Positions 9,319-63,933 of a stretch of 64,000 nt of DNA are shown one piece after another. The notes under the pieces were generated by a model, which made no database searches, was not told where the DNA came from, and worked only from the letters and a program-made list of their open reading frames with translations. Within the stretch, counting starts at the first letter, position 1. The number at the start of each line of letters is the position of its first letter. The translations under genes and the position numbers were made by a program. The stretch comes from Squalus acanthias (lineage: Eukaryota), in contig CM059439.1 of the NCBI GenBank assembly GCA_030390025.1, forward strand, positions 68,572,001-68,636,000. Direction: 5' to 3'.

Positions 9319-12300
9319 TAATAAGATATATTATGCAAATGTTTTAAAGTAATTCATATTGCAATAAAACAAAATGACCACATTTCAAGAAGCAGTGGCA
9401 CGAGTGAATATTGGAATAGCATTTCTATTTTTCAAAAAATTATGGATTAAGAAATATTCAATTCATTTTCATTCTTCTTTAATTTTTTTAAATAGATTTG
9501 TGAATGGATCTGCATATTTTACCACCAAAAAAGTTTGCAGTTCTTAAAGGGTTAGCAGCAGGAAAAAAACTCCCAAAAACAGTTATGCAAATTCTGAAGT
9601 GCAAAAATCTACTCCCACTCATAGAAGACTGTCAAAATCTTTTATCTGACAGCATTACTTAAGTTGCTTTGAAATTTAATGAAATGTCAGAATTTTGCAG
9701 TATATGTATTCAAAAGCAATAATGAAAGGTGAAAAGTTGATAACGTGAGAATGGTTTCATTGTACCAGTCTTAAAACTTCAAAGTTACTTAACTCTTTGG
9801 CTTGACTTTTTCGCTACCATTTTATATAACATGAACAGCCAAAGGTTTATATATAGCAGTAGGACTAGTTAAACGGTTGAATAGATTGATGCATCAATAG
9901 GTAGATGGAATAAAATGTGATTTTGGAATTGGGGTAAATTCGAGATTTCCCATAGGCCCCCAATGCATGGTGAAATATACGTAAAGCTGGTAATGCCTTT
10001 TATCTGTGACTTGCTTGTTCCTACCCCAGTATATTTACTTTGTCTTTCTGAGCTCCTAGCAAACAATATGTTTGCAAGACTTGATATTTTCCTGCGGCTG
10101 CTATTTAGCTATTGATGCATTAAAGTTTAAATTCCATTTGTACAAAAATATAGCAAATATTTATTACAAGTTCTTAAAACATTTGGATGGGCCAACATTA
10201 AGAATTATTATAATTTGGTTTTGTTAAATGAATAGATTCGTCAGTGGGACCCACAGTGGGAGTGAAACCTAGTTTTGACCCTTAACTGTCAATTCTGCTT
10301 TTTTACCATTTTCTTTTTATCTTTTTCTTGAATTTTTGTCCTCCATCAGGATTAGGGACGTCAGTGCTGGGGAAAGTAACATTTTATCAACATCAAATAC
10401 TCCCAAGTCCAGTGTAGCCAATTTCAATTATAAATCTCCTTGGAATTTGCCTTAATAATGCGCTTTAACTTCATGGTTTAACTTGGAACCTTGATCACTC
10501 CATCTAAAGATTAAATGTATATTGCCATTTCCATACGACAAGTTGCTAATACTGTTTTTGGTGTTCTGATTTAGAAATTGTTCACCAATAAGGTAGCAGC
10601 ACTAAGAACATCCCTTTCTACACCTCCAGCCGCGCACAATTAAAACATGACCAACCCAACAAATAAGGAATATAATCCCATGTTGGACTCAGATTCCCAG
10701 GCTTTGAGGGCCAGGAGGTGCATTTTGGACGCCTTATTCTGTTCCCACCTGTATGAATATGTTCACTTCCTATTCCAAGTGACCTTGTGGTCCCTCTGAA
10801 TGAGATTACCAGTTTTGTGCTACAGGCCAGTACCTTCTAGGAGCGGTATTGAGACTGTTGAAACTTATTCATTGTAGAAGTGTTACAACTGCTAGAAAGT
10901 TTCCATAATCATTTTGTAAAAATGAATCTGTGCAGCAGAACCAAAGTTTGCTAAGAAATATATTGAGCTTGATATTGCCTCAGTTTCCATGATTGATTGA
11001 GGTGCACATGATAGTATGAAGGTTTTCCTTTTCTTTCTGATGTCTGACAGAAATTTTAAAGCTCATATTGACATTCAAGAAGCAGTGGGTACCTGGATTT
11101 GTCCATCAGCCATGCTCTGTCAGTAATAGGCCTGCAGCTCAGCACTGCTCACAGCAGCATAGCTTCCACAACACTATATTGAATGTCACACTCTCTTGGA
11201 ACACTGGACTGTGATCATCCAGAAAGAACCATGCTCTACACATTTCCATAGATGATTCAGACTTTTTGCTCTGGAAACATCGATATCTGAAAGCCGTGGG
11301 AGCTGAGCATGTTGCCATTGATTTTCTTGCAGAGGCCCTCTAGTGAAGCTGTTGACACTGATACAGTGCTCACTCATTTGTCCTTATTGGCAAGAAATGA
11401 AATCTTATAAAAACACAAGTTTTATTTTTCAAGGGATTTTTAATTACCTCACAGTGCAGCACTCCACGTGAAGCTGTTGCATTGTTTTGTTGTTTAAAGT
11501 AAAAGGAGTGTAAGCAGCTTGACATGATCTCATGACTGAAAATCAACATCTTCTGCACATACATGGCATAAAAGGATGCTTTCCTATTAGAAACAGCTTG
11601 GCTTACTCTCAGTAACACAGATAGCCCAATAAAAATGCAATTTCTGCATTTGACAACTTGTTTCCCTACTGCATGGAGCCCAAACCTATAACAGTCCTTT
11701 ATCTAAGGTTAACATTTATGTACGAACACCTAACTGTCATGTAGTAGCCATTTATTAATGGAAAGGACTCTGTTAAAAAAGAACAATTTTCTGGTACATT
11801 TTAGTTGTGCAGTGGCAATTAAATCTATTTTAAATCAATGAAATCTGAAATTGAACATATGAATCTGTATAAATTACACCAAACTCAAATATCCTAATTT
11901 TCATAAGAACCACAGCACTATTAAGCTGTGAATAAAAAAAAAATTGAAATGTTCAGCAACAGAGCAAATCAAAAATCACAATGCAAAATCAGAAATGTTT
12001 CCTGTGTCGCTAATTGGTTTTATCTCTAGTATTTAATGTTTTCTCTCTCTGATGAAACTAATTTCCAAATCAAGAAAAAGTTCTTAAAACAAAGCCCTCA
12101 TGGCTTTAAAGAACAGAAATCTGAAACATTTAGCAGTTTCCACGTGACTATTGGCCTTATTCATATTATGTGAAGGTGTTACTACAGGAGGCAATTGCTG
12201 CAGACAAATTAAAGAGTGGTTGTGTTTTCAAGAAGTTTCATGAGCAAACTTAATCTCCAGTGGTATCTGCCAGAAAGTGGATATTGGGCGAGAACAGGGT

Positions 12301-12427
12301 TGTGATAAACCCAGCAGTTGAATTGCTTGCTGACGCTCTCCACTGAGATTCACGCATAAAGAAGCTCCATTTTAGCAAGGTGTTTGAGGGCTGCCCATGC
12401 CCCTGAAACAGTATCCTCAACATACGC

Positions 12428-13097
12428 CAGAAGATGCACATGCACCCCACCCCACACACACCCCACCCCACCCCACACAGACCCAGAAGATGCACACACA
12501 CCCCACCCCACCCCACACAGACCCAGAAGATGCACACACACCCCACCCCACCCCACACAGACCCAGAAGATACACACACCCCACCCCACACAGACCCAGA
12601 AGATGCACACACACCCCACCCCACCCCACACAGACCCAGAAGATGCACACACCCCACCCCACACAGACCTAGAAGATGCACACACACCCCACCCCACCCC
12701 ACACAGACCCAGAAGATGCACACACACCCCACCCCACCCCACACAGACCCAGAAGATGCACACACACCCCACCCCACCCCACACAGACCCAGAAGATGCA
12801 CACACACCCCACCCAGACCCAGAAGATACACACACACCCCACCCAGACCCAGAAGATACACACACACCCCACCCCACACAGACCCAGAGGATGCACACAC
12901 ACCCCACCCCACACAGACCCAGAGGATGCACACACACCCCACCCCACACACACCCAGAAGATGCACACACCCCACCCCACACAGACCCAGAAGATGCACA
13001 CGCACCCCACCCCACACAGACCCAGAAGATGCACACGCACCCCACCCCACACAGACCCAGAAGATGTGCGTGCACACACCCCACCCCACCCCACACG
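12428..13097. repeat. CA/CCCCA-rich minisatellite, unit ~30-41 bp (cagaagatgcacacacaccccaccccaccccacacagacc)
   Basis: Directly visible tandem array with variable numbers of CA and CCCCA subunits. Confidence 0.95.
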
Positions 13098-13409
13098 GTG
13101 CTGTTGTCCGTCATCTGACAGTGTCTTCAGGGACCAGTTCCACTGTACAAGTACTGAACTTGGCACATCAGTTTTGTTGTTGTATCTTCTTCCAAACTTA
13201 TGTTCTTAGCATTGTTGCAGTTGATTAGGTGCTGATCATAATCTCAGCTGGTTCTTCAAGATTGTTGGGAAAAAATTTACAGTACATTCAATGACCATTT
13301 TGAAAATAAGGACGCCTGCAAAAAAAATGGACAGCTAATGCCAGTCCCTAATGTGTTTATAATTTACAGGTTTCACAGTTTCCAATTCATGCAATTTTAG
13401 ACCATTTGA

Positions 13410-38949: not shown

Positions 38950-39170
38950 AAATAAAAACAGAAAACGCTGGAAAAACTCAGCAGGCCAGGCAGCATCCGT
39001 GGAGAGAGAAACAGAGTTAACATTTCAGGTCGAAGACCTTTCGACGAAAGGTCTTCGACCTGAAACGTTAACTCTGTTTCTCTCTCTACGGATGCTGCCT
39101 GGCCTGCTGAGTTTTTCCAGCGTTTTCTGTTGTTATTTCGGATTTCCAGCATCCGCAGTATTTTGCTATC
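38950..39170. mobile_element. Inverted (palindromic) pair of Penelope-like pLTR fragments
   Basis: Two 94-bp arms (38950-39043 and 39045-39138) around a 1-nt centre, with about 3 mismatches. Confidence 0.8.
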
Positions 39171-39247
39171 GTATTAGTTACTTTGTAATATTGTTAGTAA
39201 AAATATTTAAGCAAGAAGTTTTCCCCATCTCTTTTAAGAGACTAGAG

Positions 39248-39362
39248 CCCTGGTTTTAACCTAAGATGCCCGGCAGGAAAAGGACAGGTTCGTGTCGGAC
39301 CCCTTTTTTACACCCCGCCCGACTTTATGCTCCTGCCGGGCGGCTTAGGTTAAAATTGTGGC
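39248..39362. mobile_element. Mini-MITE / hairpin
   Basis: ttttaacctaag..gcccggcagga / tcctgccgggc..cttaggttaaaa inverted arms. Confidence 0.55.
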
Positions 39363-39720
39363 TTGGGATTAAACTCGGTCCGAGCTTCACCTCTGTCTTC
39401 ATTAGAAAAGGAAGGGTTTGACTTGTTTTGGTGAGCAGAGTCTCCCACAGAAGGAAAGGGTTAAGGTGGCCGCTCTAGGTCCTGGTGGTGACCAGAACTG
39501 CCACTAGCCATGTGTCAGAAACTTTGTGACATAACTGGGTCATTAGGAAAGACAGTCATACATAAAGAGACTGATACTTTCTCCATTTTGTCCAGCTGAA
39601 ATATATTGGTTACGTTGTACTGCTTTGTTGAGATAATGAGCAAGAAATGGTACTTGTAGTTTGTTTAGATTCAGCAGTTTACAAAACTGAAGGTTAGAAT
39701 TGCGCAGAAGTAAACACAGT

Positions 39721-39988
39721 GGGGCAGAGTTTCCGCTTTGGGGGCAATCCGGGTGCAAATTGTGCCCAAAATTGTGCTAGTTTTGAGACGTGTTTTTTTT
39801 CCAAGTTTCTGCTCAAACTCATTTGCCGATCGGCAAACTTAAAATCTGCCAGCTTCTAGCGCAATGTTTTTTAAACTGGTGCAAAAGATCACGGCAACTT
39901 GATTTGCGCTGGACATAAGTTGCGCTTGAAATTCCGCGATCTTTTGCGCTGAAAAAAAAAAATCGCAACATGGCGCAAACTCCAGGCC
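39721..39988. mobile_element. Short MITE-like element
   Basis: Imperfect TIR ggggcagagtttccgc / gcgcaaactccaggcc; CpG-rich. Confidence 0.45.
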
Positions 39989-40105
39989 ACTATCACTGAA
40001 GGAAGGATAAGAGTTATTAGCGCTATTCCTATGTTTATAAACGTTTGGTTCTATTGCCATATTTCACAGGGAGGAGTTCAAAGCTCCATTGCCTACGATC
40101 TTGTT

Positions 40106-40111
40106 TTTATT
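40106..40111 (-). terminator. Candidate proximal polyadenylation signal of CRB1 / CRB3-like transcripts
   Basis: AATAAA on -, about 415 nt downstream of the CRB1 stop, followed by AAACAAGATC. Confidence 0.4.
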
Positions 40112-40525
40112 TAAAAGTGCTCCCTAAATGAAGAGGAGGAGTTGTTACATGGACATTTTACCTTTTCTGAAACCTCCAAGCTAGGGCCATCCATCTCTGT
40201 ATATTTGAATGGTTTATCTTCTTCCTGTATTTGTGCGTGTTCTATATTCAGAACGTGAATTACATACTTGCATTGTAAACCATATTCTGTTGACAGTTTT
40301 GTGGAAAGGGAGAATTAAAATGGAGCAATTTTTTTTAATGGTATTTCGGACTGTTCAGGCAACAACTTGGCAAATCAATTGATTTAAGCTACACTTTTAA
40401 AAACTTTCAATCCTAGCTAAAGCATTCCTGGTGGCACGCTGAATTGGATGGCATCCTCTGCCTGTACATACAGCAATGATAGACCACCATACCGTAGAAA
40501 CGATTTGCCAAGCTTCAGGGTTCAT

Positions 40526-40741
40526 TCAGATAAGTCTCTCCACCTGCGGTGGGTGCACCATGTTCCACATCTCCACCCGCGATCCCTCCTTCTCCTGCCG
40601 GCTTGGGCTGTACGCCCCGTGCGTTGCTCTTTTATTCAGGGTCACAACGGAGGCAGTGAGGACTAGAAAGAAAATTAGCAACAACGCCACGGTGACCAAC
40701 CCAATATAGAGCAGAATCTCTGAGGTCCAGGCTTCCACATC
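40526..40741 (-). CDS. CRB1: CRB1 canonical terminal exon: TM helix + 37-aa tail ([71 protein letters not shown])
   Basis: Acceptor cttgtcggcag, phase 0, 216 nt to TGA. [25 protein letters not shown]..ERLI is the CRB1-type tail. Confidence 0.95.
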
Positions 40742-40984
40742 CTGCCGACAAGAGTCAAAACGGTTAAACAGTTTAAAGATAACCCACACAGGGTTAGCTT
40801 TGAAGCTGCCGTGGTTTAAAGAAAACACACGTGCACACGCACACACTTTGAGTTGCACAGCTTCGTGACGTTTCTCTTCCTCCTAACTTGTTGAGTAACA
40901 CGGGGAATACCTGGGATCTGTTGACTTCTTCTACTCCTTCCACCATAACACCCCAAGTCTTGTGCGTCCCAGAGCCTGAACATA

Positions 40985-41206
40985 TCAGATAAGGCGCTCT
41001 TCTGGCGGTAGTTTAAGGGTATTGTTCATTTCCATCCGAGATCCAGTCTGCTCCTGGTTGCTTGGGCTGTAGTTCCCTTCAGTCTGACGTTTCTCACGCA
41101 GTTTTAGAATTAGAAAAGTCAGAATGATAGCTAGAACTATCACCCCACCAATCACACAGGGAGCCACAATGGCTGCTATGTTTACTTTGTTTGGTGGTGG
41201 ATTTGT
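40985..41206 (-). CDS. Nested CRB3-like terminal exon: TM + 37-aa Crumbs tail ([73 protein letters not shown])
   Basis: attattttcacag acceptor, phase 0, open to [13 protein letters not shown] and [10 protein letters not shown] match CRB3; FERM-binding Y10/P12/E16 and PDZ-binding ERLI are intact. Confidence 0.92.
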
Positions 41207-41329
41207 CTGTGAAAATAATTCACATTTTTATTATTAGAAAGCCTCACACAAATGGGACATACTTTAATCTAGCCAGTGCCTATGAGTCAAAAGCCCAACT
41301 TGATTCATTTTTTTCAGTTTGTTTATTTT

Positions 41330-41555
41330 TTATGCAGCAAATGATGATGATCTGGAATGTATTGCCTGAAAGGGCGGTGGAAGCAGATTCAATCGTAACT
41401 TTCAAAAGGGAATTGGATAAATACTTGAAAAGGAAAAATTTGCAAGGCTATGGGGAAAGAGCAGGGGAGTGAGATTAATTGGATAGCTCTTTCAGAGAGC
41501 CGGCACAGGCTCGGTGGGCCGAATAGCCGCCTTCTGTGCTGGATAATTCAATGAC
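41330..41555 (+). mobile_element. CR1 LINE 3' fragment, immediately upstream (on -) of the CRB3-like terminal exon
   Basis: IWNVLPERAVEADSIVTFKRELDKYL peptide; gggccgaatagccgccttctgtgctg tail. Confidence 0.8.
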
Positions 41556-42520
41556 TACAATGCCACCAGGTCATGTGTTTCCACTGCCCTCAACTACATG
41601 TATACTTCTTAAAACTTACATCTTTTATGAATACATACAACTTCGCTGTGGTTTAAAATAAAAATTCACTTTTACATCCTCATTTCAACTGCCTTCCTGT
41701 TGTTTTCTTATGAGAGAGAGAGTGGTGAGATGGTGGTCTAATGTGGACTCGCCCCATGTCCACTTTCAGCACAACATCTACTGCATACCAGCTGATGGGC
41801 ATGCTATCCAGGCTGCAATACGACCCTTCCCCTGAGATTGGGGCCACTCCACTAACCACAAGGTGGTCTGGTTGAGAACTGCTGAAACTCTTTATTTGGG
41901 GGGTCAGCTGAGATGAAAGGCCAACTGAGGTTAGAATTTGAGCCCAGGTCAGCAGCAATGGAGTCCACTGTTTTATCACTAGAACTGCTGGACTACTACA
42001 ACTTCACTGCCTTATTTGTATGCGCCTGACCCAGGCTTCCACGGTTATGTAACACTGATCACACAATGGACTAGTTCTAGATTAAAGCCTAATGTAATAT
42101 TTCATGCATAATGAATTATTAATTTTTGTATCTAATTCAATGCTTGTTATGAAAACCATGCCCTTCTATATCAGAAACATTTCCACAACAAAAGCACGAA
42201 AGGTTTTGAAACTGCAGTTGGGTTCTCTCAAGTGGCACTTCTACATGGATGCATTACCAGGATAATGCATATAATTGCACAAATTTGTCTTCATTTTAAT
42301 TGAAAAGGATTCTTAATAGCTGCAGCATTGATCATGGTATTAATCTAACAGTATCCTATTAGTGATAATTGGAAGATCAATTGAGATTTCAAAGATGAAA
42401 CTGTATGGTGTTACAGAAGCAGTTTTTACTAAATCCTTTGTGAATTGTACCTTAAAAGCTGAGTTAGACTGAAACCATAGTCTATATTAACATTAGGTCA
42501 AGTTAAATCTATCAACTTAC

Positions 42521-42573
42521 AGATGATGTGCTATCAGCATTTGTTGATTGTGTAGGATCTGTTACATTCACCG
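42521..42573 (-). CDS. Nested CRB3-like gene, coding exon 2: short S/T-rich stalk (A)VNVTDPTQSTNADSTSS
   Basis: ggttcctttacag acceptor, TCT|gtaagt consensus donor; 53 nt, phase 1/0; NVT N-glycosylation sequon. Confidence 0.75.
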
Positions 42574-42874
42574 CTGTAAAGGAACCAACACTAACATGAA
42601 GACGGTACTGAAATGTTGAAAATTTGTAACTTGTTACAAATCTACCCAGTACTAAACACAAATCACCAACTTTTCTCTGTCAAAGTGACTGCAGCCTGTG
42701 CACAAGGAATGTATTTTCATTGCAGTCTTTCTTTATCAAGGTGAGGGATTACCCAGTAAATAATTTAAAATGCTTCTGCGCCAGTGAGCGGCTGCTAACC
42801 CCTGAAGTGAGCTTCGCCTATATTGCAGATACCTGCATTTACAATGAAAGTGTGTGAACCAGAGTGGTCTACTG

Positions 42875-43739
42875 TAGGGTGACCATATTTTCTAAACAGA
42901 ATGTGGGGACACACAAGGTGGGAGCACAGCAAAGTAGCCAGGACGCTTTTCAAGAAGGCCGGCAAGACGAACTTCTGAGAGTGGAATACACGTAGAGACA
43001 ACACCATTTTCACTTTACACCGAATCCTGAATCTTGCGTTTGTTCTGGCAATAGTGCTGTACCAGCTATACTCGTCCCCGAATATCCTAACTTTTAATTT
43101 CTCAATTTTAAATCTGTTCCAAACAGACTGAGATTTTCCATATAATGTGTGAAACACCCTCTGTCTCAGAAGATTTCAGAATCCTCTTTCCGGTGGGAGA
43201 ATTTAGAGCTTGCCTTATTCCTTAAAAAAAACAAGATGCTCCTTACTGAGCTGTGAGGTAAAATAAATCCACTCACTCACCAGCTCTCACTGCGCCCCTC
43301 GGCTTCTCCCGCGCACTTTAAAGGTTCCGCCCTCCGGCCAGTCACTATTGGCCAAAACTTGGGGTCAGGTGACTCAATCTCCCAGAGTGCAGTGCGGCTC
43401 GAGCTATAATCGGAGCCTATTCTCCACCACGCTGCATTGTTGGACGTCGGGGCTGTCAGCATCGCCTCCATTCAACCGGCTCCTGGATTCCGTTCCTGAG
43501 CTCAAACCGAGTGCGAACAGGACGAGAAGCTCCCCCCTGGGTTTCTGAATATTCGTGTTTAATTCCAGTCTATCCAAAAATAAAGTTAAAACCCAACTCC
43601 TGCCGCCCAGTGGACCAATGAATATGGCTGTATTCGGGGATGAGTTTCCTGAACCGGGGACACTTCCGGAGACGGTGTTTGCCCGGGGACACAGTACCTA
43701 ATCACTGTCCCTGGAAAATGGGGATGTATGGTTAGCCTA
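42875..43739. mobile_element. Non-autonomous hAT (Blackjack-like) DNA transposon
   Basis: TIR tagggtgaccata / tatggttagccta; perfect 8-bp TSD gtctactg at 42867-42874 and 43740-43747; subterminal ggggacac repeats. Confidence 0.85.
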
Positions 43740-44408
43740 GTCTACTGCCCCCGCCCTCTAGTCAGGCAAGGCTGCCCTCTATGCATTTGTACCAAATGTC
43801 CAACTCTTCATTGGTCCCCAGCTGCTGGTGAAATTCTAATATTGAAGAAAAGCCAATGTGGCTGCCAACTCTTTACTAATATTAGAAACCTGAAGGTGGT
43901 CGAGTGAACTAAGTGGTGTCTTTTCAAACTTAGCTTATAATGCTGGCCTGACATCAGTTACAACTGGAGCCAATGGGAAAGCCAAATGGTTTGAAAATAT
44001 CTCCAATTGGTCTAATACCTGGTGCAAAAAGCTGAACTGATACAATTCATGTTATTTTGTAGGAGCACAAGTATAGCTGACCTACAATAGGGGCAGAACT
44101 TGCTCTAAGACTGTAGAGGCTGAGATGCAGAACAAAAGTGTTAGTTACATGCAACAAAGTAACTAATAATGATAGGCAAATCAAGGTTCCCTCTAATGCA
44201 AAACAGCTTAGTGCAGACAAAGCTTAAACATGGGTGTTAAGAAGACCAATACCAGGATCTAATCCTAGAAAGCCAGTTCTACAGAAACTAACCACTGCCT
44301 TTGTAATCTTGTCAAGGAATATCATCTTCATGGGAAAAATGTCTGGCAAGCCTGTTTTGTTTGATTCATTGAAAACACACGATGCAATAAGGTAAACCAA
44401 GACAAAAT

Positions 44409-45152
44409 GGCCCAGAAATTAATGACGGAGCCTTCGTGCGGGGGTAAGGCTTCCCCGCGATATCTCACTGCGCGCCTGCCTTTTCATTCCGAGCTCGCAC
44501 GAACTTGATTTTCTAGACAGCAGCTGTGCAGTGCTTCCGTATCCCACAGGCGCAGTTAATTCGTGCGAGCTGTGGGATCACGTGATTCAGTTAGAGCCAA
44601 TGGCAGCACACCATCTTTCATTCATAGTTTTCACAGCAAGTGCTGTGAAAGCTATGAATCTATACCCCCTCAAAAGAACAGCTAAACCTCAATTAAATTT
44701 TTTTAAAAAACCATCACATTAATAAAATAAGTATAGTTAAATAAATTAACCACTTTAAACAAAAAATTAAATTTTTGAAAAAATTTAAAATCTTTTAAAA
44801 AGTTATAAAAATAAACTTACCTTTCTTTAAAGTCTCTAAAAAAGATATACCTGTTGAAAAAAATTCAAAATAATACTTAATTAACTACTTACCTTGTTAA
44901 AAGAGGGTCTTACGCCTCCTTTCTTTATGTGCAAAATCTTCCATGCTTACCTGCGCGTTCAAAGCACTAAGTGCACTGCGTGCGCGCAGCCTGTAGCGCG
45001 CACGCGGTTCACCTAGGAACCGCCCCCTTTTGAAATCACCAAGTGCCGGTTTTCAGCGCATGCGCAGTGCATGCAGAAAACCGGCAATTGGAGACAGAAT
45101 ACGCGAGAGTACACAGTGCGTACTCTCGCGTAGAGACACTAATTTTTGGGCC
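44409..45152. mobile_element. PIF/Harbinger-type MITE, copy 1
   Basis: TIR ggcccagaaatta / taatttttgggcc; 3-bp TSD AAT; highly similar copy at 53406-54127. Confidence 0.85.
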
Positions 45153-46826
45153 AATATGTCACTGCATTAGTTACACATAACAATGTTGGAGCAGAATGAG
45201 CCACTCTTCTGGCTCTTGTCTTTTCCAACAAACAGGAGAAAGCTTTCCAAACATTGTTTTTCTTACAGATAGTATGCCTTAAAATTAATTGCACTCCACT
45301 GCAGAACTGTTATTGAAGGACTGATCTTATTCATTTCCTGAAACAGCGCCGTGAGCGTCAGTTATTGATGTTCAGTTGGATCTTTTGTGAGCAAGGAAGG
45401 AGCTTTCTTAGTTTGGTTGTGTTGGCATTGGTCATTGAAAGATTAGCTGCTGGGTTGATGTGTATGATGCAACCTGTTACATGAGGTTACCCTCAGTCAC
45501 TCTGAGGTATTTGTGTATCTTCATTTTATCTGAAAGTGCAGTATTCAGTCAGTCAGGTCATCATATGATTAATCAACATCTTCATTTTTGCTGTATCGTG
45601 CGACTACCAGGATGGTAGAAGGCAAACTAGACGGACCCTGTCTAGAAATTCCCATGTTCTACTCAGCATGGGTCTGATTAAGTGTGTTTCAAAGATTATT
45701 TTTAGCAATTGCACCATCCCTTTTTGAAAGCTGAAACATGGTTTATTTTAGGACTTAACAAGGTAAAGAGCTGTCATGCCAAGATCTACTTATTAATGGC
45801 AGAATGGTTAATAAATGGATTCAGTGCAGTGCAACAATTTCTATGTTTGGATTCTTTTCCCTCCAAAAAATGTATGTTTTAAGAGAGAAAAGTTGAATAA
45901 TTCCAGCCTTTCTTTGTGCCTAGGCCTACACAGGAGCTGAGTGAGTATGGGCAGCTGCATCCACATAGTCATCGGCTGTCCCAGAGTTCTTCATAGTACA
46001 TTGTACTCGGGCTGATGCAAGCAACACATTACCATGTCTTTTGCTGCACCTGAATTGATATAAATGTGGTGTCTGTCAGAATGCCTGTTAGACAGTGTGC
46101 TACCCTAATACTCATTGAAAATGAAATCCTCCCTTCAAGTATTCTAGGCCTGCAAGGTAATTTTTTTTAGAATATTTCACTTATTTGACTGGGGATTATA
46201 CAGTAAAGTACCTTTTTAAATTCTGGTTAAAGTGGAAGACATTGAAATTTTTCTTGATTTGTTTAATCATAAAAGAACTTTACTTTTTTTTATTTTGCCT
46301 GTTAAGAGTTGTCCACATATGGCTTGGGTGGGTGTTGCACAACATTAAGATGAATGAATGATTCATTTCCTTTAAACTTTCAGGGAATCTTCCTATTGCC
46401 TCTCCTTTTTATTTGGCTTTCTTTGATGTGCTGTTAATGTTTTAACTCTCAGTTACAGGTTACACAAGGGCCTGTTTCATGCACTTTTACTACACTTGTG
46501 ACGAACATATCTTTCCAATGTGGAGACCAATCTCCCTCAATCGGAGATCAGTAACTGGCACAGATCCTTGTCCTTACGTTTCCTGAATGTTTCAGTGGGT
46601 GCATAGAGATGCCTAAAAACTGTTTGATGTTTCATGGAGGACATATACTACAGACTGATGGTTTATAGAAAGTCTACAAGCCTTGTGAGTTATGTTGCTG
46701 CAAATGAGTGATTTACTTTCAATAAACCACCAGTTCCCAATGTGCATGAATTTCTTATAATAATTTAGCATTATTTTATATATTTTAATTCTTGGGTTAA
46801 TCAGTTAGCATTTTGACTGGACTATT

Positions 46827-47989
46827 ATAAGAACATAAGAAATAGGAGCAGGAATAGGCCACTTGGCCCCTCGAGCCTGCTCCGCTATTCAATAAGATCT
46901 TGGCTGATCTTGGGCTCAAAGCCACTTCCCTGCCAGCTCCCCATAATCCTTCACTCCCTTATCTTGCAAAAATTTATCTATCTCCAACTTAAATGTATTA
47001 ATGACCCAGCCTTCACAGCTCTCTGGGGCAGAGAATTCCACAGATTTACGAACCTCAGAGAAGAAATTCCTCCTCATCTCAGTTCTAAAAGGGCGACCCT
47101 TTATTCTGAAACTGTGCCCCCGAGTTCTAGATTTCTGCAAGAGGGGAAACATCCTCTCTGCATCTAACTTGTCGAGCCCCCTCAGTATCTTATATGTTTC
47201 AATAAGATCACCTCTCATTCTTCTAAATTCCAATGAGTATAGGCCCAGCCTGCTCAACCTTTCCTCATAAGTCAACCCCCTCATCTCTGGAATTAACCTA
47301 GTGAATCGTCTCTGAACTGCCTCCAATGCAAGTATATCCTTTCTTAAATAAGGAGACCAAAACTGTACGCAGTACTCAAGGTGTGGTCTCACCAATACCC
47401 TGTACAGTTGTAGCAGCTTCCCTGCTTTTATACTCCAACCCCCTTGAAATAAAGGCTAACATTCCATTTGCCTTTTTGATTACTTGCTGTACCTGCATGC
47501 TAACTTTTTGTGTTTCATGCACAAGGACCCCCAGGTCCCTCTGAACTGTAGCATTTTGTAATCTCTCTCCATTTAAACAATAGTTTGCTTTTTTATTTTT
47601 CCTGCCAAAGTGGATAACCTCGCACTTTCCCACATTATACTCCATCTGCCAAATGTTTGCCCACTCACTTAGCCTGTCTATATCCCTTTGCAGATTCTTT
47701 GAGTCCTCTGCACAACTTGCTTTCCCACCCATCTTTGTATCATCCGCAAACTTGGCTACATTACACTCTGTCCCTTCATCCAAGTCATTAATGTAGATTG
47801 TAAATAGTTGAGGCCCAGCACCGATCCCTGTGGCATCGCACTAGTTACCATTTGCCAACCGGAAAATGACCCATTTATCCCGACTCTCTGCTTTCTGTTA
47901 GTTAGCCAATTCTCTATCCATGCTAATATATTACCCCCAATTCTGTGAGCTCTTATCTTATGCAGTAACCTTTTATGTGGCACCTCAAA
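46827..47989 (-). mobile_element. CR1 LINE fragment (RT domain to 3' tail), frameshifted
   Basis: VPHKRLL..PQGSVLG, KFADDTK and VRPHLEYCVQFWSP spread over three ORFs. Confidence 0.95.
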
Positions 47990-48256
47990 CGGTGGAAGGT
48001 GAATGGACAGGTTAGATTTAATGACTTCACTCAGATGGTGGTGGGAGAGACTAGGCAGTCTCAAGGTGACAATGGAGGCACCTTCAAGAAGGAGCTGCAT
48101 AGATTTTTTGTGAAAGATGCAACTGAATGATACGAGTGGTCTGGAACAGTGTTTTTTGAGCATTGCTTCTGGCCAAATATCTCAACTGATCCTGTATGTT
48201 TCCATATTTCTGTGTTTCTGGACACATTTGGTGGCTACATCTTGTAACTGGAACGT

Positions 48257-49418
48257 ATTCGATAAGGTGCTACACAAGAGGTTATTAAACAAAATTAGGG
48301 CTCATAGGATTGGGGGTAATATACTAGCATGGACTGAGGATTGGTTAACGGACAGAAAACAGAGAGTAGGAATAAACGGGTCATTTTCGGGTTGGCTGTA
48401 ACTAGTGAGGTACTGCAACGATCAGTGCTTGGGCCTCAGCTATTCACAATCTACATCAATGATTTGGATGAGGGGACCAAATGTAATATATCCAAGTTTG
48501 CTGATGATGCAAAACTAGGTGGGAATGTAAGTTGTGAGGAGGATGCAAGGAGGCTTCAAGGGGATATAGACAGGTAAGTGAGTGGGCAAGAACATGGCAA
48601 ATGGAATATAATGTGGAGAAATGTGAAGTTATCCACTTTGGTAGGAAAAATAGAAAAGTAGAGTATTTGTTAAAATGGTGAGAGATTGGGAAATGTTGGT
48701 GTTCAGAGGGACTTGGGTGTCCTTGTACACAAATTACTGAAAGTTAAAATGCAGGTACAGCAAGCAATTAGGAAAGCAAATGGTATGTTGGCCTTTATTA
48801 CAAGAGGATTTGAGTATAAGAATAAAGACGTCTTACTGCAATTATATAGGGCCCTGGTGAGACCACACCTGGAGTATTGTGTACAGTTTTGGTCTCCTTA
48901 CCTAAGGAAGGATATACTTGCCATAGAGGGAAGGCAATGAAGGTTCACCAGACTGATTCCTGGGATGGGGGGATTGTCCTATGAGGAGAGATTGAGTAGA
49001 CTAGGCCTATATTCTCTAGAGTTTAGAAGAATGAGAGGTGATCTCATTGAAATTTACAAAATTCTTACGGGGCTTGACAGGGTAGATGCAGGGAGGATGT
49101 TTCCCCTGGTTGGGGAGTCTAGAACCAGGGGTCACAGTCTCAGAATAAGGGGTCGGCCATTTAGGAATGAGATGGGGAGAAATTTCTTCACTCAGAGAGT
49201 GGTGAATCTTTGGAATTCTCTACCCCAGAGGGCTGTGGAGGCTCAGTTGTTGAGTATATTGAAGACAGAGATCGATAGATTTTGAATATTAGGGGAATCA
49301 ATGGATAGGGGGATAGTGCAGGAAAGTGGAGTTGAGGTAGAAGATCAGCCATGATCTTATTGAATGGCGGAGCAGGCTCGAAGGGCCAAATGGACTACTC
49401 CTGCTCCTATTTCTTATG
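48257..49418 (+). mobile_element. CR1 LINE fragment (RT domain to 3' tail), frameshifted
   Basis: FDKVLHKRLL, KFADDAK, VRPHLEYCVQFWSP and WNSLP over four ORFs; CR1 tail. Confidence 0.95.
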
Positions 49419-49655
49419 CACCACAAAAGACAAGTTCTGATGGCTTATATATATCATATGAGTAACCAGAAAATGTAAATCATTGCCTTAGAGACACCTG
49501 TATGATAAAATTACCTTTAGAATTTTAATTGGCGTAGTTACATATTCGGATTGGGAATTGGCATAGTTATGCATTCGATTGTTTCACAAGTATGTGCAAA
49601 CAATGCAGTGGCACCCAAGATTAAATCAATTCTGGATCATTTAGTTCCTCAACTA

Positions 49656-50009
49656 CAGGAAACTTTTTATTAACTGGCACCGGCGTGGTGCCGGTTAATC
49701 AAAAAGTCCGGATAACGGAGAGTTATATCTCCCAACGTACGAGAGCCCCGTACACACTGACATGCGCCTGCATTCGGAGCTCCGTCTCCCCGGGGACCGC
49801 CAGCTGACCATCTGTCGTGTCCGCTGCCTACCCGGGCTGCACATTCCCCTCCCAATCTACATGCTCCGATACAAGTCAAACGCCTCGGGGTTTTTTTTAA
49901 GTTATTTTTAAAGGAGAGATGAAGGAAAACCCCGGTTACCTACTCAAGAATTTTGCCGGTTAAGAGAGATTTCCGGTTATTTGGGTGCCGGTTAAAAGAG
50001 AGTTTCCTG
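49656..50009. mobile_element. Tc1/mariner (Tigger/pogo-like) MITE
   Basis: TIR caggaaactttttattaactggcacc / ggtgccggttaaaagagagtttcctg, flanked by TA on both sides. Confidence 0.8.
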
Positions 50010-50824
50010 TACATTGTTCTGCCTGCAGACAGTTTTGATACAGCACCGTACAACATCTTTAAGCAGGTTTAAGCCCCACTGCCATTTTGTTCTTATGTGT
50101 CATGCAATGTTCTGACAGCTGTGATGGAGTCAGCTTTTTACAACCCTGGAAACCCTGGAAAAATTAATTTCAATTGCTTTATGAGAAAAAGGGTTAATGC
50201 ACAGATCTGACATGTTTTCAAATGTATCCGAATCACCTTTTCCCAAAGGAAATTCCACTTACAATTATCATAGTACTTCCTATTTTCTCTCATTTATCCC
50301 AGTTTGAATATTATAATTTTTACATTTTACTGTGAGTGGCATTGTCATTTTAAATATGAAGTCAGTATATTTTTTATCTCAGTTATTAACTGGTAAGTTT
50401 ATTATTTAGTACAAACTCCTCTTCAGAAAATAATAGTATTTTGATTATACTGGGAAACTGAAGACAACAGTGGCTGTTTCCTCTTTGACCACTAAAACTA
50501 CTGATATTTTCCTTTCTGTATTCTTCACATTTAGTCTCCTTGACTCATGCATCATGCACCAATAAAACCACATCCATTAACAGTAAAAGCATCACCTCAG
50601 TCCAATCTTTAAACGTACTAAACATTTCAGTCATAAAAACTGCCCTTGTTCCCAGCCTTGCATCGATGATCCATTACCTATTTAGATTTGACAGACTTCA
50701 GATATAATTATCCAATCTAAAAATAGCAACACATTAGGTCTGGGTTAGTTTTATCCAGCACAGTCTAAAAAGTTACAATTCTATTTCTGCACCTTCCTTT
50801 TACTTTTAGCAAGCACAGGTTTAC

Positions 50825-50906
50825 CTTGTGTGAGCAAAGATCCTCGCTTTAGTAAAAGTACTGTAACCGACAACCAGCCAAAGCCCAGGAGCAGTCGTTT
50901 TTCCAT
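50825..50906 (-). CDS. Nested CRB3-like gene, coding exon 1: signal peptide MEKRLLLGFGWLSVTVLLLKRGSLLTQ
   Basis: agaATGG strong Kozak context; basic n-region plus hydrophobic core; AAG|gtaaac donor; 82 nt, phase 1, matching the acceptor phase of the exon at 42573. Confidence 0.7.
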
Positions 50907-52479
50907 TCTAACAGAGCATTGCTCTACAACTTGAAAAGCAATTCCAAAATTTCAAGTGATATTCCTGAAGAGATCGGTCCTGGGAACTTAAGAGTCTTTT
51001 TAATTCAAATTAAAAAGACGTTGAGACTGGTTGCAAAGAAGTCCCTTTTTTCTATGCAGTTAGACTGGCTTCCTGCTTTGCTGGTAGTTTCTGCCTGTAC
51101 CTTTTGAAAACTAGCAATTTCTATCAGACGCCGTGTGATACCTGCCTCCAGTTTCAGGTTACAGCCACACCTGAACCCTGCAGCTAATACCTTAACCTAT
51201 GGTGTAATCTATTGTCAGGCCCCCATTGCTGTCTTTGGCAGGCCTTAAAAAAAATCTTACATTTTTATCCAAAAAAATCTACTTGAGTTTTTTTTTCCCA
51301 GAACAAATACCAGTGTTATTTTATATTAAAAGTCCTCTCTGAATATATATTATTCAGTTATATATATCAAGGTGACAATAAACTGATTCTGAACAAAAAC
51401 TCATTGTTATCCCTCAGTGGATTTTTCATGCCACAGGGTAAGTACCCTAGGATGTCTTTGTAGCACTGTAGTTCCACAAAGATATTGCTAAATATACAAT
51501 CGTAGATAAACACATCTGAACTCGCTACCAGTAGTTCCCAAAAAGCATAGTGAATGAGAGATTAATCAAATATGTTTTAGGTCAAATATTCAAACTTTTT
51601 TCCCCCAATTTTGTCCAGCTAGATTAGAGAAATTCAAAATGTTCATCATTTGTAATTGTGTGAGTGCCACTATGATTCATCCACAAAGTATGTATGCTGA
51701 AAATCTCAATTTTTTTTTGACAAACCTCGTTGCCAATCATACACTTTTCCAGACCACTTGTAACTCTGCTTTTCCAAAAATTAATTCAGATCTGCAGTGA
51801 GACAAATTTTTATTTTAATGATGATAAAATAGAGAATTGGTAAAACATTATAAACGTATTAACATTATAAGTAGAGATAACTTTTAAAAAGATTGAAAAT
51901 AATATATCTACACTTTGACAAAAACCACTTCCCTTGTACACTGTGGTGCCATTTTTCATACTGTCCACACGTGCATACAGGCTTTGTGGATGATCCCAAA
52001 TTAATACTGAAATAAATCACAGCTGTGGGTCTACACGTCTCTGTGTACAGGTTTGGAGTTGACATATCGGTTGATATTTCAACCAGTGTTTTCCTGATTG
52101 AAGATATATTCGAGGTGCCGTCTCGCAGAAGCATGTGCATATGCTGTTGGATTCTGCATTCATAGTAACATGTGATATATTTTTTCTCATTCTTTTTTAT
52201 GAAGTTATTTTATTTTCTCTCTCTCAGAACTCATGCCCTCCACTTTCCCCGTTCCTGAGGCAACCTGCTCCCAGGTCCCTGTTTGTGCTTCTCTCAATCT
52301 GGCCACCAGGGGGAGGGGGTATAAAAGTAGATCAGGGCAACATCCCCAATTTTTCTCACATTTTAAAAGCAGTTATAATCAGTAACATAAAACCAAATGA
52401 ATGTGATCCTAACTTAACCAAATGCAAACCAGAATTCTACATTTCTATAGCGCTCCTCATGTCGGAGTGCTCACTGGCT

Positions 52480-53014
52480 CAGTGATAGCAACTGAGAGAC
52501 GATCAGGACATTGGGACTGGGCCGATCAGGGGTGGGGGCGACGAGAGATGGCCGGCAGCAGCCCTTGGTTTTAATGTGGAGCTAGGAGGTGCACTGCTGC
52601 TCCTCCCAGTTCCATATTTAGTTAAGTATTTTTTAAACACTTACGTTTTTGGTGGCTGCCTGCAACGGTCCCTTTAAGGGCCTCCGGTTTGGCCGGATGT
52701 AGGCCAGGTTTTCCTGGCTGTGTTCAGGAAAACCAGGTCTTCGTGTGGCCAAGCTGGCGGCGTTCAGAGCAACCCAATTTTGTATTGGGGGCCTTAAACA
52801 CACGTTAGGCCCCTTATTTGCATATGCAAATGATACAGTAATGTCTGTTCCAGGTGCAGGCCCTGAACGTCTATTTTTTTTGCCTCTACCAATATGGAGG
52901 GCAGCGTACTTCCGGCTCGTAATGAGCACGCGTTTCCTGCCCACCATATTAGACGTTTAGACGCCCATTTAGCACCTGAAAAACAGGCACGGCGCCATCG
53001 AATTTCTGGATCGC
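52480..53014. mobile_element. Partial MITE-like element
   Basis: CpG-rich block with ccctttaaggg and atttgcatatgcaaat palindromes, ending in gaatttctggatc, similar to the other MITE ends. Confidence 0.4.
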
Positions 53015-63695: not shown

Positions 63696-63806
63696 TCAAC
63701 CCCACTCAATTGCTGGTTCATCCTCCATTCGTAGTATGAGGTAGGAGAGAAGCTGAAAAAGATGCTGCCAGAGTAATAAGGAGATGAAAAAGGAGAGATC
63801 GCTTAC
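63696..63806 (-). CDS. CRB1: CRB1-B-type alternative C-terminus by intron read-through ([36 protein letters not shown])
   Basis: In-frame continuation of the EGF exon for 36 codons to TGA, with AATAAA ~20 nt downstream. Close to the recalled mammalian CRB1-B tail [36 protein letters not shown]. Confidence 0.85.
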
Positions 63807-63933
63807 ATCAAACTCACAGCGGTCACCGGCAAATCGCATGTCGCAGATGCAGTGGAACTTATTGGGCAGGTTTCGGCAGAAACCTCCGTTGAGACAAGGG
63901 CCCGATTCACATTCATCAATGTCGACTTCGCAT
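63807..63933 (-). CDS. CRB1: CRB1 penultimate exon, last calcium-binding EGF domain ([42 protein letters not shown])
   Basis: cctgcag acceptor, GAT|gtaagc donor; 127 nt, phase 2/0; six-cysteine EGF with DIDEC motif. Confidence 0.95.

Follow-up and report, generated by a model that had tools for sequence, protein, structure and literature searches.

A CRB3-type short unit within the CRB1 locus of Squalus acanthias, and a possible origin of CRB3 as an internal form of a long Crumbs gene

The CRB1 locus of Squalus acanthias

The 64,000-nt stretch of the Squalus acanthias genome analysed here (assembly GCA_030390025.1, contig CM059439.1, positions 68,572,001 to 68,636,000; hereafter the window) carries on its minus strand the 3′ part of CRB1, a Crumbs-family gene whose remainder continues on the same strand past the window edge. 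Between the last EGF exon of CRB1 and its mammalian-type last coding exon (tail exon B) lie three further minus-strand exons, which make up a short unit encoding a CRB3-type protein. As claimed in an original prediction made from the sequence alone, and re-derived here, these exons have GT donors, AG acceptors and matching phases, and splice to a 357-nt frame of 118 amino acids (aa). The short unit is real, transcribed and conserved, and it is an alternative-promoter product of the CRB1 locus, having its terminal exon (tail exon A) in common with CRB1. The features of the locus are collected in Table 1.

Table 1. Features of the CRB1 locus (positions are those of the window; UTR, untranslated region)
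Feature	Position	Strand	Description
Short-unit exon 1	50825..50906	-	82 nt, phase 1; signal peptide, 27 codons + 1 nt; hydrophobic core at about residues 4-20
Short-unit exon 2	42521..42573	-	53 nt, phase 1 to 0; stalk rich in S/T/P, bearing a single N-glycosylation sequon (N30)
Tail exon A (short-unit exon 3)	40985..41206	-	222 nt; transmembrane helix and 37-aa Crumbs tail, end ERLI; common to short unit and long CRB1
Tail exon B	40526..40741	-	last coding exon of CRB1 (mammalian type); 3′ UTR where transcripts end in A
CRB1 last EGF exon	63807..63933	-	phase-0 donor; can be spliced to tail exon A or B, or be read through
Read-through of last EGF exon	63696..63806	-	open frame; hydrophobic end without ERLI, CRB1-B-type; used by Mustelus model P0135
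5′ untranslated part of exon 1	50907..51102 (at least to 51102)	-	run X2 contig cover
Candidate internal promoter zone	51139..51173	-	CAGGTG and CAGGTA, 40-70 nt above 5′-most transcript cover
3′ UTR of A-ending transcripts	39418..40984 (at least this far)	-	includes exon B; 1789-nt contig

Tail exons A and B have the same phase, and the 243 nt that separate the stop of A from the acceptor of B contain neither AATAAA nor ATTAAA. The neighbour of the locus is, as had been predicted, a DENND1-family gene; it is convergent and, on grounds of synteny, presumably DENND1B.

Conservation in sharks, rays and chimaeras

A protein search with exon 3 returned 18 proteins from 20 candidates, five of them at 88-97% identity and 13, which are CRB3 proteins, at 58-64%. 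Full-length orthologues of 118 aa occur in Mustelus, Carcharodon, Narcine, Mobula, Hypanus, Hemiscyllium and Rhincodon (RefSeq XP_078074271.1, XP_041064320.1, XP_069793962.1, XP_062919932.1, XP_059840686.1, XP_060686160.1 and XP_048458202.1), and all seven align without a gap over the three exons, with identities of 15-21 of 27 residues in exon 1, 11-16 of 18 in exon 2 and 62-71 of 73 in exon 3; the short unit is therefore not the product of chance, and the conservation of exons 1 and 2 in related species, on which the original prediction had made its case depend, holds in all seven. Exon 1 is open, ATG-led and hydrophobic in seven species. The shark and ray models that RefSeq names ‘protein crumbs homolog 3-like’, all of 118 aa, are direct orthologues under automated names, on which no paper was found, and annotations of other sharks assign these exons to CRB1 isoforms, so that both kinds of annotation foreseen by the original prediction exist. 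The position is conserved too, since catshark and bamboo-shark models P0019 and P0151 run from the CRB1 EGF exon into the whole short unit, and chimaera models P0129 and P0155 join CRB1 to exon 3.

Two smaller features lie beside these exons. A three-codon upstream frame at 50919-50908 has its stop one base ahead of the short-unit ATG, and 17 nt above exon 2 another acceptor (42574-42590) leads to the shifted frame of the Carcharodon X2 model P0020, which has no signal peptide.

Transcription of the short unit

Four runs were compared over positions 39000-53000 of the window, namely three contig sets, classed as RNA by a program's guess, and one run of raw single-cell reads, X19, of which about 26 in 100 were read. 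The joint between exons 2 and 3 (41206-42521, CT..AC on the plus strand) is present in contigs of three of the four runs, at depths of 17.3, 13.5 and 8.0. The X19 reads gave no listed joint in the short unit, though their depth over exon 1 is 1.96. A 1789-nt contig of run X1 is unbroken from 39418 to 41206 at a depth of 34, and A-ending transcripts therefore carry CRB1 exon B in their 3′ UTR; the depth of this run halves at the exon 2-3 joint, from 34 to 17, for which an allele bubble or another upstream partner may be responsible. Exon 1 is covered by a 261-nt contig of run X2 (50843-51102), and none of the four runs has any cover in the following bin, 51142-51608.

Of the two junctions that the original prediction proposed, 42521 to 41206 was thus recovered, but 50825 to 42573, which would join exon 1 to exon 2, is not among the joints listed, 63 further joints lying outside that list. 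Its absence there could mean that exon 3 is merely an alternative last exon of long CRB1 and that exons 1 and 2 belong to no independent coding transcript. The same reading could draw on four RefSeq CRB1 models (catshark, basking shark and two bamboo sharks) that end in three residues, an ending that would fit an out-of-frame splice from the EGF exon (63807) to the stalk exon (42573), giving a form without the helix; with such a splice, long transcripts could be the source of the exon 2-3 joints. We nevertheless regard it as very unlikely. Contigs of X2 and X3 have 64 letters before exon 3, 55 of which fit the exon 2 side, that is, the 53 letters of the exon plus AG, and this fit is predicted by exon 1 and by neither intron retention nor the EGF exon of CRB1. 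The shared suffix is 2 letters for exon 1 and 0 for the EGF exon, and the exon 1-2 splice is therefore indirectly supported. The transcription of exon 1, and its open, hydrophobic frame across species, also argue against an exon 3 that serves long CRB1 alone.

That CRB1 carries an internally started unit of CRB3 type, as originally proposed, we judge to be right, and the internal promoter would probably lie near the 5′ limit of the transcript cover. Mammalian CRB3 is repressed by SNAIL via E-boxes, and by ZEB1, according to excerpts of PMC8624420 and PMC4278252. The motifs CAGGTG and CAGGTA in the candidate zone are a lead only, because each occurs 29 times in the window and both are absent from the 600 nt above the CRB3 ATG of this shark.

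A tail exon shared with long CRB1

Exon 3 is also predicted, by public gene models, to end the long protein. A search for longer proteins containing it gave five from 77 candidates, all named CRB1. Thirty long chondrichthyan CRB1 models were examined in the clusters found (15 of the 19 members of the largest cluster being listed), and in 11 of the 30, from seven species, the last EGF exon is spliced straight to exon 3, a share that is biased upward since these automated models were found with exon 3 as the query. Among the others, six end in exon B, one reads through, three reach exon 3 in another way and nine are truncated models. Both A-ending and B-ending isoforms are present in several species. 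The joints of long CRB1 fall outside the stretch covered by the runs.

The original prediction had described a complete gene nested in the last intron of CRB1. The siting in that intron and the strand stand, but exon 3 ends long CRB1 models and the UTR overlaps exon B, and the unit is therefore not strictly a nested gene. Outside mammals the name ‘CRB1’ changes its meaning, as a shark CRB1 can carry a CRB3-type tail.

The short protein and known Crumbs systems

By hydropathy, the N-terminus has the basic N-region and hydrophobic core of a signal peptide, conserved in the seven orthologues. The stalk has no EGF or laminin-G domains, and its sequon N30 is present in the window and in all four orthologues compared at this site. 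One transmembrane helix follows, and the 37-aa tail, which begins at residue 82 and terminates in ERLI, matches the Crumbs tail solved as 4wsi/4yl8 (E 2.2e-9); the architecture originally predicted, with a signal peptide, a glycosylatable stalk, one helix and a Crumbs tail, is borne out in each part. The FERM-binding motif G-x-Y-x-P is present as GNYSP.

The tail-PDZ contact is a textbook pair, and in mammalian epithelia CRB3 supplies an apical Crumbs tail without an adhesive ectodomain. The ERLI end of the shark protein would likewise be expected to bind the PDZ domains of PALS1/PAR6 and the juxtamembrane motif to bind FERM proteins, and an internal start would give cells the apical tail without the adhesive ectodomain. 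The 118-aa product should therefore work like CRB3 as a single-pass apical protein, an expectation in which location and PALS1/PAR6 binding are read from motifs. The FERM-binding motif (window ~41070) varies among species, being GNYSP in most sharks and rays and GTYSP in the chimaera Callorhinchus, in Heptranchias and in Rhincodon (whale shark); the threonine of GTYSP, lost in GNYSP, is an aPKC site in fly Crumbs.

Vertebrate CRB3 (CRB3A, the ERLI form, of 120 aa in human according to an excerpt of PMC5380682) has the same signal, stalk, helix, 37-aa ERLI tail and phases. The shark unit differs in that it lies inside CRB1, has its tail exon in common with long CRB1 and has a 3′ UTR that runs through the last exon of CRB1. 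In the portion of Ray et al. 2020 (PMC7335077) available to us, CRB1-B is likewise the product of an alternative promoter and an alternative end within CRB1, but it keeps most of the ectodomain and has no conserved tail motifs, the opposite of the shark unit, which has no ectodomain and an ERLI tail. A read-through end of that type is present at the shark locus as well. A search of the literature, excluding supplements and the 2006 zebrafish gene-naming papers, found no description of a short Crumbs inside CRB1 or of tandem tails; the protein type is known and the gene models are already public, while the arrangement was not found described. The read-through end at 63696..63806 is one that we presume to correspond to the mammalian CRB1-B end.

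CRB2 and CRB3 in the same genome

The genome DNA was examined as 23 stretches. A tail search with exon 3 gave five matches from six candidates, and a query with exon B led to the same five places and to no fourth Crumbs locus; the five Crumbs tail exons of the genome are A and B of CRB1, A and B of CRB2 (contig C14) and one in CRB3 (contig C22). Each of the three loci faces a DENND1-family gene. Over 33 residues the DENND1 exon on C14 shows no difference from human DENND1A, and the neighbours of CRB1 and CRB3 are presumably DENND1B and DENND1C.

Stand-alone CRB3 lies at C22:19917864-19926770 beside its own DENND1 paralogue, so that the separate CRB3 locus which the original prediction had proposed to look for does exist. 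It consists of a signal exon (61 nt, phase 1), a stalk exon (53 nt, phase 1 to 0) and a tail exon of phase 0; within 60 kb, no EGF/LamG (long-Crumbs) match was found. The CRB1 short unit is not a stand-alone CRB3 locus of this kind, since it is sited inside CRB1. Tail exon A is 62% identical to the tail of this CRB3 and 44% to CRB1 tail B.

At CRB2 (C14:79559916-79575606), an EGF exon with an open read-through of CRB1-B type is followed by a 73-codon phase-0 A exon, which is the usual last exon, and then, about 1 kb on, by a CRB1-type B exon. The last intron of CRB2 (14,166 nt) was scanned for signal and stalk exons by the scans that recovered the true exons in CRB1 and CRB3, and yielded two signal-like candidates, both of phase 2, and no stalk-exon candidate. 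An unnamed Logan protein, P0220, groups with CRB2 tail B, which may therefore survive in other vertebrates.

Trees of the tail exons

Trees were built on 66-67 columns (the last 66 residues) for sets of 56 and 34 rows, with an outgroup whose ‘invertebrate’ label is inferred from the sequences. One clade (98/97) unites the B exons of CRB1 with those of CRB2, and another (98/94, 97/97) unites the A exons. Within the latter, CRB1 tail A is placed with CRB3 and the cyclostome tails, apart from CRB2 A, at 93/88 in the 56-row and 95/92 in the 34-row tree. Given the small number of columns, the A/B split alone is firm.

This split bears on a local explanation, that exon 3 is a tandem copy of CRB1's own last exon to which new upstream exons were added. 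The two exons are indeed only 243 nt apart and in the same phase, but an approximately unbiased (AU) test rejects the placement of CRB1 tail A with CRB1 tail B (p 5.1e-5, under the model used), and exon 3 is closer to CRB3 (62%) than to B (44%); we consider such a copy extremely improbable.

Lampreys, hagfish and teleosts

A profile search of 1.84 billion representatives gave 375 matches, the best 150 of which are considered here. A long Petromyzon protein (P0245, ‘crumbs homolog 2-like’) and an unnamed protein of 131 aa with a signal peptide (P0202) have their last 76 residues in common with two differences, and the common stretch begins at the exon border directly after the last EGF exon. 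The hagfish short form P0298, ‘crumbs homolog 3’, has a stalk similar to that of P0202. Cyclostome-type short Crumbs proteins (P0202, P0296 and P0298) have a cysteine-rich stalk, compared with an S/T-rich one in jawed vertebrates.

Among teleosts, the Megalops (tarpon) model P0159 runs from a signal through a stalk and an A-type helix and tail into CRB1 exon B, and in the Periophthalmus (goby) ‘crb3b’ P0278 the end of exon B is fused with an A-type helix, so that a position of teleost crb3b directly upstream of the last exon of crb1 is suggested by two fused automated protein models. In the ESM Atlas the nearest clusters to the tarpon short unit are CRB3-like and none is crb3b; the structure search was uninformative. 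Zebrafish crb3a and crb3b have been explained as duplicates of crb3, with the digestive system showing strong expression of crb3b (PMC5676222, in excerpt). Teleost crb3b resembles the shark unit in being a short Crumbs protein, tied to the last exon of crb1 in the goby and tarpon models, and differs from it in a much more diverged tail and in that published explanation.

Origin of the arrangement

The original prediction missed the tandem tail pair of CRB2 and the signs in lampreys and teleosts, which point to a much older arrangement. The reading that we prefer, at a probability of roughly 70%, is that of an ancestral long-plus-short locus, with shark CRB1 as a two-promoter gene with alternative ends. 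A distant promoter would give the long EGF/laminin-G CRB1, whose end would be exon A, exon B or a read-through, and an internal promoter near 51.1 kb would give a short mRNA made of the signal exon, the stalk exon, exon A and a UTR through exon B.

That lampreys and bony fish have this layout too suggests an internal short form as the beginning of the separate CRB3. We lean, with somewhat less confidence, towards a fuller history in which CRB3, the chief Crumbs protein of vertebrate epithelia, arose as the internal-promoter short form of an ancestral long Crumbs with two tandem tails. One tail exon would have doubled into A and B before the split of CRB1 and CRB2; the short unit would have been gained ahead of A in the CRB1/CRB3 line, before lampreys and jawed vertebrates split; and genome duplication would then have given CRB1, which kept all parts in sharks, and CRB3, which kept only the short unit, by reciprocal loss, mammals later losing the short unit and exon A from CRB1. 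The parts would thereby have been sorted, with the short unit in CRB3, tail A in mammalian CRB2 and tail B in mammalian CRB1, while sharks and lampreys would have kept them undivided, and zebrafish crb3b would be the unit inside crb1 rather than a fish-specific twin of crb3a. For this history we take the CRB1 and CRB3 segments to be sisters. The portions of PMC8302630 and PMC7269912 available to us do not confirm that relationship, and the former places the divergence of cyclostomes between two genome duplications, which fits the proposed timing.

It might instead be supposed that, in an early jawed vertebrate, the last intron of CRB1 received a copy of an already separate CRB3, whose last exon long CRB1 later took over. 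The grouping of CRB1 tail A with CRB3, the CRB3 exon pattern of the unit and the lack of a short unit in CRB2 would all suit an insertion, but in CRB2 an A exon matching in length and phase occupies the same place upstream of B, so that the insertion would need to have hit the position of an ancestral A, and a lamprey long form already has its tail exon in common with a short form. We think an insertion unlikely.

Repeated origin, with a signal exon added before A separately in cyclostomes, CRB3 and CRB1 and a likeness that is convergent, is in our view quite unlikely. The signal and stalk are short and diverged, the cysteine-rich stalks of cyclostomes are unlike those of the shark, no same-strand similarity was found between the DNA upstream of short-unit exon 1 and that upstream of CRB3 exon 1, and C. 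elegans possesses its own short Crumbs (PMC4359734, in excerpt). Convergence would nonetheless have to produce the same phases and an identical 53-nt stalk exon length in the short unit and CRB3, together with a signal segment of 27 residues, as four primate CRB3 proteins also have, and a near-identical helix start.

Several observations weigh against the ancestral long-plus-short locus and the history built on it. At the shark locus these are the exon 1-2 joint missing from the joints listed, the inability of contigs to fix a start site, which leaves the short unit with no mapped start, and the upward-biased share of A-ending long models; in addition, the Callorhinchus short model P0004 is without exon 1 and starts in sequence that is intronic in Squalus. 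As the CRB2 intron yielded no short unit, an age greater than the CRB1/CRB2 split is not supported for it. The AU test does not reject CRB1 tail A with CRB2 A (p 0.094), nor cyclostomes outside all jawed-vertebrate A exons (p 0.065), and Megalops A, which has a long branch, stands apart from CRB1 tail A in both trees, with p 0.068 when the two are constrained together. The evidence from outside sharks consists of protein records, and P0202 could derive from a recent duplicate.

The proposed history would make the origin of CRB3 open to testing and offer an example of isoforms that became genes, and would explain the tail differences of CRB1, CRB2 and CRB3 by a sorting of paralogous exons that followed genome duplication. 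If teleost crb3b is this unit, crb1 and crb3b overlap in zebrafish, and 3′-end counts, probes and deletions at the 3′ end of crb1, in a model of a human retinal disease gene, may mix the two.

Other features of the window and the Crumbs contigs

Intron 1 of the short unit contains, at 46834-49418, two LINE-like (long interspersed nuclear element) reverse-transcriptase fragments in opposite orientation, with arms that are 79-92% complementary. Elsewhere in the window, at about 12250-13225, there is a C/A-rich low-complexity tandem array whose long open frames are spurious. The three contigs that carry the Crumbs loci have other EGF-rich genes as well, at C14:79.39-79.42 Mb, C15:84.53-84.56 Mb and C22:15.27-15.34 Mb, which are possibly the three Notch paralogues.

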